Shown piece by piece: positions 1-40,231 of a DNA stretch of 63,688 nt (positions within the stretch are counted from its first letter, which is position 1; every line of letters starts with the position of its first letter). The stretch covers positions 1-63,688 of the forward strand of contig JAHFKN010000007.1 in the NCBI GenBank assembly GCA_023245355.1, read 5' to 3'. Position numbers and translations under genes: made by a program. This DNA is from Candidatus Gottesmanbacteria bacterium (lineage in GTDB: Bacteria > Patescibacteriota > Microgenomatia > UBA10105 > UBA927). A model generated the notes under the pieces. The model was not told the DNA's origin and searched no databases. It was given only the letters and a program-made list of their open reading frames with translations.

Positions 1-1
1 G

Positions 2-73
2 CTCCCCCGGTAGGATTCGAACCTACAACCTTCTTCTTAACAGGAAGCCGCGCTACCATTGCGCCACAGGGGA
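2..73 (-). tRNA. tRNA-Asn (anticodon GTT)
   Basis: The reverse complement folds into a 72-nt cloverleaf: acceptor TCCCCTG/CGGGGGA, D stem GCGC/GCGC, anticodon loop CT-GTT-AA, T arm GTAGG-TTCGAAT-CCTAC, discriminator G. There is a G27.A43 mismatch. Any CCA end would run off the window edge. Confidence 0.95.
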
Positions 74-25757: not shown

Positions 25758-27779
25758 ATGGAGAAACCATCTCCGACATACGATATTGCTTCACGCTACG
25801 CGCACACCATGCGCGAAGATACGGAAAAAACCGACCGGTTCTACGACCGCATGGCGCTTCGCGGTATTGCGGTATTACGGGACAGCCGGGAGGAAGATCA
25901 GCCGGTTTGGCGCGGGGATCACAGTTATAATTCCGATGCAGCGACGTATTCCCTCATGCATTTTATAGAGCCGGAAGTTGCCCGTGAGCACCCCGACTGG
26001 ACACAAGTGCAGATTCATGCGGATGCAATCGACCGTTTTCAAAAGCGCCTCGCACAGGATTTATCGTATGAGCGCGGAGAAATTGCCCACGAAGAGTCAG
26101 TTGTCCGCTGGCGGCCGGTTGAAACAAAAAACGGGATTGAACTTGCTACCGAGTACGGAGATACGATGGTGACATTGCAGGAATTGTGGGAGCACACAAA
26201 AGAATACGCGGCATTTGCAGGAAACCCCGCGGCGTATAACAGTCAGGAGCATGAGGCCCAGCTCCGGATGCAGGAGACACTCATTAACGGAACATCACAC
26301 GGGTTTGTGAGTGTATTGTCTCATCCTGACGGCGTGCGATATGTACAGATCTGGCAAACGTCCGATGCAGGAGATGTCATATCGCAGCATGTGGATTTAT
26401 ATGCAGCCACGGGCCGGGATTTTACTCCGGAAGAAGCAAAAGATCTTATTTACCATCTGTCGGATTTTCACGCCAGCAATGCTGACGCTGAGAAACAACA
26501 GCACAAAAATTCCTATGCGCATTTTTTTTGGCGTGAGGGATCCGTGAATGCCGAGGACGTGCGGACGATCGCGATTGCGCAGTCAGTATACAGCAGTGAC
26601 CGGGTGTATGAGCGGGAGACGGTTTCGGTGTCGCGCCGGAGAAAGGATTCCGGGGTTGTCGTGAATGATATCGGAAACGGTATGCGGCAGGCAGGACGGT
26701 TTCTGGCAGTTGAGATAGAGGAAAAAATCCGCGCAATCGGGAGTATAGCCAGCAGGCCGGAGATAAAACGCAGTACCAAACCTGCAGCAGCTGCAGGGAA
26801 AGAAAAACGCAGTGTTCCCGTCAGGGTGCAGGTGCTTCCGGTGTCTGAAAAAAGCCGCGCGAATGAAACGCACAGCGAATCCGTATCATCGGCACATACC
26901 GGTAAAGAAGGGCTAAAATCCGCGATGGCTGAATGGTGGATTTCCAAAACAATGCTGGCATATGCCGGCCGGGTGCCGGCAGCGCCCAATGCCATACTGT
27001 ACTGGTTTACCCGGATTGCGGAAAGCAAAACGAACGTCCAAATCCCGGAAAAAATGTTTATGCCGGAGCCGCACGGTAAGCCCGGTGTTGCACCTGAACA
27101 CAAGGCGCTTTTGAAACGCCGTGAAGCAAAGAACGCTCCGGATGCCTGGAATGCGTTTATTGATAGGATTAAAAAATCGGTAGGATTGCGCGCACCGTTC
27201 CTGCGCCGGGAGCGTTTCCCCGAAAGAGCCAATAAAAAGGAGTATGGAAACGATGCAAAACGCTTTGTCGTCCCGAAACCGGGTGAGACACGCCCCGAAA
27301 TATCACTCATAGCCGTGTACTATGCGGCAGCAACCCTCTTATCCCGGTTTTTTACGCAGCCGGAGTTACCCCGCTCACCAAAGCTGCCCAAAGAGATCGT
27401 GCGCGTCAGAATCCGGCAGGAAGCTAAGGGTGAACCGGAGCGCGCGAGTGCCGTATCGTTAGGACGCCTTATGTTTGCCATCGTCGTGTGGTGGATGTAC
27501 GGCGTTTCACCGGAAGCAGTGCCGGCAAAAACAGTGTCAGGCGGCCGTGCGTCAAAAGAAACGAATAAGAAACCGGAAGAGACAGAAGAAACAAACCCGT
27601 CAGAGAACCCCGTGTGGATTCTGCTTTCCATTATCTGGCAGCTTGCCATGATCCGGGAATCGGCTTTGTCTGGGTCTCAGGTGCCGGCAGCAAATCAGCA
27701 AACGAGTAGCCGCCCCAAACGAAAACGGAAACATGCAGCATTGCCACAGCATGGCATCATATTCGCCTTTGCTTCATGA
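25758..27779 (+). CDS. Large hypothetical protein (673 aa)
   Basis: Long ORF with SD AGGAGG. Globular-looking N-terminal half, low-complexity basic middle, two or three hydrophobic C-terminal segments. No recognised motif. Confidence 0.75.
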   Translation: MEKPSPTYDIASRYAHTMREDTEKTDRFYDRMALRGIAVLRDSREEDQPVWRGDHSYNSDAATYSLMHFIEPEVAREHPDWTQVQIHADAIDRFQKRLAQDLSYERGEIAHEESVVRWRPVETKNGIELATEYGDTMVTLQELWEHTKEYAAFAGNPAAYNSQEHEAQLRMQETLINGTSHGFVSVLSHPDGVRYVQIWQTSDAGDVISQHVDLYAATGRDFTPEEAKDLIYHLSDFHASNADAEKQQHKNSYAHFFWREGSVNAEDVRTIAIAQSVYSSDRVYERETVSVSRRRKDSGVVVNDIGNGMRQAGRFLAVEIEEKIRAIGSIASRPEIKRSTKPAAAAGKEKRSVPVRVQVLPVSEKSRANETHSESVSSAHTGKEGLKSAMAEWWISKTMLAYAGRVPAAPNAILYWFTRIAESKTNVQIPEKMFMPEPHGKPGVAPEHKALLKRREAKNAPDAWNAFIDRIKKSVGLRAPFLRRERFPERANKKEYGNDAKRFVVPKPGETRPEISLIAVYYAAATLLSRFFTQPELPRSPKLPKEIVRVRIRQEAKGEPERASAVSLGRLMFAIVVWWMYGVSPEAVPAKTVSGGRASKETNKKPEETEETNPSENPVWILLSIIWQLAMIRESALSGSQVPAANQQTSSRPKRKRKHAALPQHGIIFAFAS

Positions 27780-32077: not shown

Positions 32078-32128
32078 GTTTGGATTACCAAATTACCCTG
32101 TTTTGCAGTAAAATAAGCAGTATATTCC

Positions 32129-32200
32129 GGGGCCGTAGTTCATTGGTAGAACGCGATCCTTATAAGATCGATGCACTTGGTCCGATTCCAAGCGGCCCCA
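32129..32200 (+). tRNA. tRNA-Ile with anticodon UAU
   Basis: Cloverleaf: acceptor GGGGCCG/CGGCCCC, D stem GTTC/GAAC, anticodon stem CGATC/GATCG with loop CT-TAT-AA, T arm CTTGG-TCCGATT-CCAAG, discriminator A. CCA is not encoded. Confidence 0.92.
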
Positions 32201-32201
32201 C

Positions 32202-32738
32202 ATGGAATTAGTCGTATTGGTTGATGAGCATAATACTCCGATAGGAACAGCGGATAAAGATACCGTTCATACGACGGATACGCCGCTTCACCGGGCGTTT
32301 TCTTTATTTTTGTTCAACTCCCGTAACCAGATATTGCTCACCAAACGGGCAAACGCGAAAAAAACATTTCCCGGAGTCTGGACCAATACCGTATGCGGCC
32401 ATCTTGCACCTGAGGAAACGCCGGTAGAAGCAGCGACCAGACGGTTATCAGAAGAACTGCATATCCGCGGCGTAAAGATAGCTGACTTTTCGCCGTACCG
32501 GTATCGTTTTGCAGATAAAAACGGCATTGTAGAAAACGAAATTTGTCCTATCGTCATCGGATATTTTGACGGAGATCCCGTGCCTGATCCGAAAGAAGTA
32601 GACGATTGGAAATGGGTGATCTGGGAGGAATTTATACAGGATATCAGGACACATCCGTCTCCGTACTCCCCCTGGTGCAGGGAAGAGGCGGAAATCGTCA
32701 GGACGAAACTTCTACGGAAAGATCAGGAAACGCGTTGA
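32202..32738 (+). CDS. idi: Isopentenyl-diphosphate delta-isomerase, type 1
   Basis: LHRAFS, WTNTVCGH, RLSEEL, FSPYRYR, ENEICP, EVDDWKW, YSPW. Confidence 0.93.
   Translation: MELVVLVDEHNTPIGTADKDTVHTTDTPLHRAFSLFLFNSRNQILLTKRANAKKTFPGVWTNTVCGHLAPEETPVEAATRRLSEELHIRGVKIADFSPYRYRFADKNGIVENEICPIVIGYFDGDPVPDPKEVDDWKWVIWEEFIQDIRTHPSPYSPWCREEAEIVRTKLLRKDQETR

Positions 32739-38255: not shown

Positions 38256-40231
<1,976 letters not shown>

Follow-up and report, generated by a model that had tools for sequence, protein, structure and literature searches.

The window, by which we mean the whole stretch of 63,688 nucleotides that was analysed, carries on its forward strand a tRNA-Ile gene with the anticodon UAU (positions 32129 to 32200, 72 nt). 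According to ARAGORN and Rfam, its 3' end is the discriminator A73 and CCA is not encoded. ARAGORN called tRNA-Ile(tat) at 32129-32201, one of two tRNAs in the window, and the match to the Rfam model RF00005 (32129-32200) scored 63.6 bits (gathering score 29), and all of its pairs are canonical. Read from the 5' end, the acceptor stem (GGGGCCG/CGGCCCC) is joined by UA to the D arm (GUUC-AUUGGUA-GAAC), which is followed by a single G, the anticodon arm (CGAUC-CUUAUAA-GAUCG), the variable loop AUGCA, the T arm (CUUGG-UCCGAUU-CCAAG), the 3' strand of the acceptor stem and finally A73 at position 32200. The anticodon TAT lies at 32161-32163 (+) within the loop CUUAUAA (C32, U33, A37, A38), and the T loop UCCGAUU (32181-32187, +) has C at position 55, where U is near-universal. 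Compared with the elongator type of RF00005, the cloverleaf is therefore as expected and the U54-U55-C56 T loop is not, position 55 being C. Features resembling isoleucine identity are A73 and a D arm as in tRNA-Ile GAU. The initial annotation had described a perfect cloverleaf with the loop CU-UAU-AA, A73, C55 and the pair U15/A48, and every one of these features was recovered from the sequence, ARAGORN and Rfam. The UAU tRNA shares 75% identity with the GAU tRNA of its own genome and 83% with a congener's UAU tRNA that has the same T arm; judged from such comparisons, the UAU gene has long been a lineage of its own and is not a derivative of the GAU tRNA like the Bacillus subtilis suppressor discussed below.

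Upstream of the tRNA lies a gene for a 465-aa protein with a PreATP-grasp domain (PF18604; 30680-32077, +), which is its conserved left neighbour and occupies the same position, with 52-89% identity, in the loci of ten relatives. Between the two genes a promoter-like site, TTACCA-18-TAAAAT (32085-32114, +; 9 of 12 matches), was found 15 nt 5' of the tRNA; the number of such sites in the promoter scan was not above that of shuffled controls, and the site is a candidate only. Downstream is idi (32202-32738, +), encoding a Nudix-type isopentenyl-diphosphate isomerase (PF00293) and syntenic in 11 relatives, and then tsaD (PF00814; 32698-33771, -), whose product acts in t6A37 synthesis. The latter gene is convergent with idi, overlaps its 3' end and is syntenic in nine relatives. 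The order PreATP-grasp, tRNA(UAU), idi and tsaD is kept across the genus and the family. As the initial annotation had pointed out, tsaD is two genes away from the tRNA, being the next gene after idi; the proximity is best regarded as conserved synteny, with no functional link in evidence. The ATG of idi lies 2 nt past A73, so the tRNA and idi are probably co-transcribed. No Shine-Dalgarno sequence was found at the idi start (window 32200-32204), and 3' processing of the tRNA would leave a nearly leaderless idi mRNA; the gap between tRNA and idi in the relatives ranges from 8 to about 650 nt.

In several congeners, partial duplicates of the 3' half of the UAU tRNA lie between the tRNA and idi (G008:C22:76472-76598, G005:C9:29582-29703, G011:C6:233227-233353, and G015:C1:174478-174748, the last with a duplicate of the 5' half as well). 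Their arrangement suggests insertions that target the UAU tRNA gene, and the window copy, which has no such duplicate, looks like an empty site. Two further observations concern the window at large. The same tRNA-Asn(GUU) was called at window positions 1-73 (-) and at the end of contig C9 (C9:204618-204690), and the window contig and contig C9 probably abut or overlap there. In addition, an AdoCbl-II (cobalamin) riboswitch aptamer (RF01689; 25664-25734, +; 39.4 bits, gathering score 36.5) lies directly 5' of a 673-aa ORF to which no function is assigned (25758-27779).

Two other assemblies of the same organism were compared with the window, one a 93-kb metagenome contig from ENA (ERZ27279942) and the other a 7.4-kb contig from Logan (SRR14366791), whose samples are possibly the same or related. 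Both were identical to the window across 211 nt, TAT included. Orthologues of the UAU tRNA were obtained from 13 relatives by BLAST with the tRNA and subsequent ARAGORN calls. Their stems show compensatory changes; for example, the pair that is G15:C48 in other congeners has changed to U15:A48 in the nearest one and in the window. These changes look like those of a functional, vertically inherited gene. The pair U15/A48 is thus ordinary covariation of G15/C48, by which it is ruled out as an adaptation for telling AUA from AUG. An assembly error behind TAT, with CAT as the true sequence, was named in the initial annotation as a refuting case and is very unlikely, since the two further assemblies are identical and at least 25 relatives have a UAU orthologue. 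That TAT is a sequencing or assembly error, or that the tRNA is a recently mutated or mobile-element copy without a general role, has next to no probability: the partial duplicates that flank the gene in some congeners are a sign of insertions at the site, but no duplicate stands beside the window copy, its sequence is identical in two other assemblies, TAT is kept in orthologues of several families with compensatory stem changes, and the chromosomal synteny around the gene is conserved.

The genome, that of an ultra-small (CPR) bacterium, amounts to 1,275,218 bases; the assembly has 12 contigs and a completeness of 94.9%, so that absences from it rest partly on relatives. ARAGORN found 50 tRNAs, and the isoleucine set consists of GAU (contig C10) and the UAU tRNA of the window. 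Only two CAU tRNAs are present, an initiator with a C1xA72 mismatch and an ordinary elongator, the methionine identity of the latter resting on count and orthology and not on an isotype-specific model. A lysidine-using bacterium needs three CAU tRNAs. The whole-genome tRNA search proposed in the initial annotation thus yielded no third CAU tRNA, and the accompanying search for tilS was likewise negative: the TilS N-terminal model TIGR02432 had no match in the genome, while the control gave matches in 14 of 14 reference genomes. Both U34 and C34 tRNAs are present for Lys, Glu and Gln.

Some other members of the tRNA set deserve a brief description. ARAGORN called a tRNA-Ser with the anticodon ACU (loop UUACUAA; C9:143135-143221) adjoining Ser-UGA, besides Ser-GCU. 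Apart from Arg-ACG, tRNAs with A34 are unusual among bacteria. In this genome Arg-GCG stands in place of Arg-ACG, and Ser-ACU is missing from the complete relative G032. A second gene resembling tRNA-His(GUG) (C4:9332-9404, -) lacks GG in its D loop (AAAAGUA), and its T loop (AGCAUUA) is aberrant as well; it may represent a pseudo-tRNA, a tRNA belonging to a mobile element or a regulatory mimic of a tRNA.

The absence of TilS extends to the relatives. Among 41 genomes of the class, covering genus, family, order and class (12 families, with 35 genomes at least 90% complete), none had TilS at the family cut-off of TIGR02432. A pattern search detected the UAU tRNA in 24 of the 41, the window's own genome counted, and with G032 the number rises to at least 25; the strict 38-nt UAU pattern undercounts, and all pattern counts are lower bounds. 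The remaining 17 genomes were negative by pattern, G032 being among them even though ARAGORN identified its UAU tRNA, and genomes with neither TilS nor the UAU tRNA are therefore not established, since the pattern misses real UAU tRNAs. No genome of the class set had two elongator-type CAU tRNAs in the pattern search. G032 is a complete genome in a single contig of 785,860 bp and has no TilS. Among its 46 tRNAs, those for isoleucine are GAU and UAU, and exactly two have the anticodon CAU. Because a complete genome has the same solution, the caveat of incompleteness is removed at the level of the class. The proposal of the initial annotation that TilS and tRNA-Ile2(CAU) were lost in this lineage thus holds up, with TilS in 0 of 41 class genomes, just two CAU tRNAs in the genome and AUA behaving as an isoleucine codon (see below).

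The distribution was then followed in an even sample of 201 genomes from the phylum. TilS scored above the cut-off in 84 genomes and below it in 117, and a tRNA-like UAU match was present in 61, a count that leaves out eight stemless chance matches (three genomes had only such matches). TilS and the UAU tRNA co-occurred in none of the 201 genomes (Fisher p = 6e-19); in one genome, a TilS fragment just under the cut-off (86.8 bits) was found together with a UAU tRNA. The mapping of UAU tRNA against tilS that had been suggested earlier therefore revealed mutual exclusion across the phylum. C32 and the UAU loop are kept in all 61 tRNA-like matches. The expectation that tRNA-Ile with UAU would be rare does not apply to this phylum, where 61 of the 117 TilS-less genomes have it, again a lower bound from the strict pattern. 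Read as a phyletic pattern, these counts indicate that some of the phylum has kept TilS and the remainder, to which the whole class of this genome belongs, has lost it; in TilS-less genomes the usual substitute is the UAU tRNA. Among named GTDB genomes, a scan that gives breadth and no frequencies returned at least 120 matches, and 117 of those listed were tRNA-Ile(tat) genes by ARAGORN. Judged by the titles of the matches listed, most came from CPR bacteria (Saccharibacteria, Parcubacteria, Woesebacteria, Levybacteria, Curtissbacteria, Shapirobacteria, Dojkabacteria and others), and Planctomycetota, Ignavibacteria, actinomycetes and others were also among them.

These distributions bear on the possibility that the UAU tRNA is only an accessory copy, the true decoder being tRNA-Ile2(CAU) together with TilS or another C34-modifying enzyme encoded in the unassembled 5% of the genome. 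The draft state of the assembly (94.9% complete, 12 contigs) leaves room for this explanation, some bacteria have tilS and a UAU tRNA together (PMC3575796), and UAU tRNA genes are found outside CPR as well, beyond the phylum covered by the TilS counts. Against it stand the lack of TilS above cut-off in all 41 class relatives (completeness is 90% or more in 35), the complete genome G032 with the same tRNA set, no tilS and no third CAU tRNA, the fact that no relative has two elongator-type CAU tRNAs, and the mutual exclusion of TilS and the UAU tRNA across 201 phylum genomes. We consider an accessory role highly improbable.

AUA is far from a marginal codon in this genome. In 931 long ORFs, ATA was used at 17.4 per 1000 codons and accounted for 25.5% of isoleucine codons, at about 50% G+C. 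The groEL gene (38579-40231, +), taken as a codon-usage witness, contains 6 ATA, 8 ATT and 24 ATC codons; the five ATA codons listed in the initial annotation (38639, 39728, 39800, 39935 and 40043) are all present, and a sixth lies at 39899. In 374 pairs of ORFs aligned with G032, ATA positions corresponded to I in 34%, V in 19% and L in 19%, the same profile as for ATT and ATC, and ATG positions corresponded to M in 26%. AUA is thus a common isoleucine codon that needs a dedicated decoder, and its heavy use, together with the alignment of ATA with I, V and L, points to the UAU tRNA as that decoder.

We therefore put at roughly 0.88 the probability that the UAU tRNA is the sole decoder of AUA, having replaced tRNA-Ile2(CAU) and a TilS that was lost class-wide. 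A tRNA with a ready-made UAU anticodon would stand in for tRNA-Ile2(CAU) and TilS. One type 2 IleRS, lacking the INS subdomain and with the ARD3 pocket Q900/R903/K904, would, by homology, charge the GAU and UAU tRNAs and reject CAU. U34, most likely unmodified, would pair with the A of AUA, and, by extension from the work on Mycoplasma mobile, misreading of AUG would be kept low by the elongator tRNA-Met(CAU) as a competitor, with ribosomal discrimination as a possible second factor. Matters of direct observation are the gene, its conserved sequence and gene order, the lack of both TilS and a third CAU tRNA, and the heavy use of ATA as an isoleucine codon, as well as the IleRS type and pocket described next.

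The single-copy IleRS (961 aa, genome contig C4:256805-259285) consists of tRNA-synt_1, Anticodon_1 and a C-terminal DUF5915 domain (PF19302), with no zinc-finger domain (PF06827). It scores about 647 bits to type 2/cytoplasmic structures compared with about 285 bits to type 1, and among the NCBIfam exception models it is closest to MupA and MupB. By these similarities it is classed as a eukaryote/archaeal-like type 2 enzyme. The DUF5915 match covers profile positions 88-176 only and begins 24 residues after Anticodon_1; with only the second half of the domain matched, the INS subdomain is missing from the enzyme. INS comprises about 80 residues inserted in ARD2, and its loss is recurrent in IleRS2 (Modrusan et al., PMC13752280), so its absence does not exclude membership of type 2. 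In the ARD3 motif REIQMLRKEKGC, which starts at residue 897, Q900/R903/K904 align with Q961/R964/K965 of PmIleRS2, the residues that read base 34 there (PMC13752280).

In yeast IleRS, Arg999 forms a hydrogen bond with the carbonyl of N34, as O6 of G (crystal structure) or I, and, by modelling, with O4 of U or pseudouridine; C34 offers no such carbonyl and is rejected (PMC11685878). By homology, we infer that the enzyme of this genome can charge tRNA-Ile(GAU) and tRNA-Ile(UAU) and exclude tRNA-Met(CAU). With the same yeast enzyme, charging of the UAU tRNA as an unmodified transcript was 40-fold below that of its pseudouridine-modified form (PMC11685878), and an unmodified U34 may consequently be a poor substrate unless the IleRS of this genome has adapted.

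An adapted IleRS was one of the solutions envisaged in the initial annotation, and the comparison across the phylum qualifies it. Type 2 IleRS occurs in 198 of the 201 genomes, with or without TilS, and is thereby ruled out as a marker of TilS-less lineages. Comparison of the N34 pocket in 8 TilS-positive and 8 TilS-negative enzymes, a small sample, revealed no consistent difference, and a single-residue switch in the pocket, of the kind represented by R865 in M. mobile, was seen in none of these 16. From this distribution, the type 2 enzyme is best viewed as a permissive background and not as the cause of TilS loss. Full-length DUF5915 matches, including the INS-bearing half, came from TilS-positive genomes in 37 of 40 cases among the 201 phylum genomes, and most TilS-negative genomes, the window's genome among them, kept the ARD3 half alone; this split may reflect phylogenetic inertia, or an IleRS C-terminus that co-evolves with the AUA decoder.

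The state of U34 was approached through enzymes of the known U34 pathways, namely MnmG, MnmA and Elp3 besides TilS. MnmG and Elp3 were found in none of 21 genomes, and MnmA was found neither in the genome nor in 19 of the 20 relatives searched, G031 alone having it. Because MnmG, MnmA, Elp3 and TilS are absent, U34 is probably unmodified, as in M. mobile. The alternative is that U34 is modified by an enzyme not yet tied to this role, either a pseudouridine synthase giving psi-A-psi or a new enzyme, in which case the modification itself would restrict pairing to A and improve charging. The 40-fold better charging of the psi-A-psi tRNA by the yeast type 2 enzyme (PMC11685878) favours such a modification; the heavy use of ATA, even in groEL, likewise argues for an efficient and accurate decoder, and a haloarchaeal mutant tRNA-Ile(UAU) is reported to gain a modified U34 (PMC3895270). 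However, the known pathways are absent, no candidate enzyme was identified, the lineage sheds tRNA modification enzymes generally, TruB included, and M. mobile copes with an unmodified UAU anticodon (PMC3575796). On balance we regard a modified U34 as the less likely state, with a probability of somewhat under one in three, and retain unmodified U34 in the proposed scheme.

Changes in the tRNA body had been offered in the initial annotation as another solution to AUA/AUG discrimination. Of the two unusual features that it had noted, C55 and U15/A48, neither turned out to be an adaptation of the UAU tRNA. The C55 T loop (UCC) is present in 5 of the 50 tRNAs, namely Ile(UAU), elongator Met, Thr-CGU, Thr-GGU and Thr-UGU (the other four at C9:39138-39210, C4:238058-238131, C10:69112-69186 and C10:75388-75461); the initiator tRNA of the genome has G55. 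TruB was found neither in the genome nor in 19 of 20 relatives, and the only positive genome, G032, has the UUC T loop in all of its 46 tRNAs. C55 recurs in UAU, CAU and GAU tRNAs throughout two TruB-less families and is absent in the other families of the class. By this co-distribution, C55 is a lineage trait linked, within this taxonomic order, to the loss of the pseudouridine-55 synthase TruB, and it seems that TruB was lost first and U55C substitutions followed. As an adaptation for AUA/AUG discrimination, C55 is ruled out, because it is common to tRNA-Met and three tRNA-Thr and follows the loss of TruB.

Several known systems resemble the one described here to different degrees. The canonical system of TilS and lysidine-bearing tRNA-Ile2(CAU) serves the same task, reading AUA as isoleucine and not AUG, and is present in 84 of the 201 phylum genomes, but neither this genome nor its class has either of the two parts that define it. 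Nine species from three clades that have no tilS and possess a tRNA-Ile(TAT) gene were reported by Taniguchi et al. (2013; PMC3575796), and for Bifidobacterium and Neorickettsia a eukaryote-type IleRS was noted (PMC3575796). By its gene content, our genome matches this Bifidobacterium/Neorickettsia subtype, with no tilS, a genomic tRNA-Ile(UAU) and a type 2 IleRS as the presumed charger. Unlike those cases, it belongs to another phylum and the trait is class-wide (TilS in 0 of 41 genomes); MnmG, MnmA, Elp3 and TruB are missing as well, the IleRS is without INS, and ATA makes up 25.5% of isoleucine codons at about 50% G+C. In M. mobile, too, TilS and tRNA-Ile2(CAU) have been lost and a UAU anticodon serves for AUA; its U34 is unmodified and its ribosome tells AUA from AUG (PMC3575796). 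Its IleRS, however, is of bacterial type 1 and owes its recognition of UAU to the replacement of Trp by Arg (R865) in the zinc-binding domain (PMC3575796), whereas the IleRS here is of type 2, with an ARD3 C-terminal domain and another mode of recognition.

The eukaryotic cytoplasmic tRNA-Ile(UAU) is likewise dedicated to AUA, and there a C-terminal Arg of IleRS (Arg999 in yeast, R903 here) reads the carbonyl of base 34 and excludes C34 (PMC11685878). The eukaryotic tRNA has pseudouridine at positions 34 and 36 (made by Pus1 in fission yeast, PMC11912914) and an intron in its gene, neither of which is evident here. In the B. subtilis suppressor of a tilS deletion, a G34U mutation of tRNA-Ile1, a U34 tRNA-Ile also replaces the lysidine system, and in that case experimentally (PMC3919564; PMC3575796); there the GAU tRNA itself was mutated in the laboratory, while the UAU gene here is a separate one. 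In a 2018 survey of 1093 bacteria, TilS was found in 98% and was called evolutionarily stable (PMC6063277), and a 2026 paper still terms UAU tRNA-Ile a rare case (PMC13752280). In the searchable literature we found no paper linking lysidine with Patescibacteria or candidate phyla, and nothing relevant that joins TilS with Patescibacteria, treats tRNA modification in Patescibacteria or concerns tRNAIle UAU in Saccharibacteria. The kind of mechanism is already known from a few bacteria, and its clade-wide distribution in CPR is apparently unpublished.

Since AUA is heavily used (17 per 1000) and is read by a U34 tRNA without TilS, MnmEG, MnmA, Elp3 or TruB, the class may hold an undescribed device for AUA/AUG discrimination, either a new anticodon-loop enzyme or a ribosomal or tRNA-body adaptation, common to the TilS-less majority of Patescibacteria; we offer this suggestion tentatively and think it rather doubtful. 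If true, a sizeable part of bacterial diversity would be able to do without lysidine. The finding also matters to genome annotation, since three CAU tRNAs are what pipelines look for, and to antibacterial ideas aimed at TilS. For the biology of the group, it provides a natural and phylogenetically broad system for asking how a U34 tRNA avoids AUG, how a type 2 IleRS handles U34 and how far the loss of tRNA modification can go.
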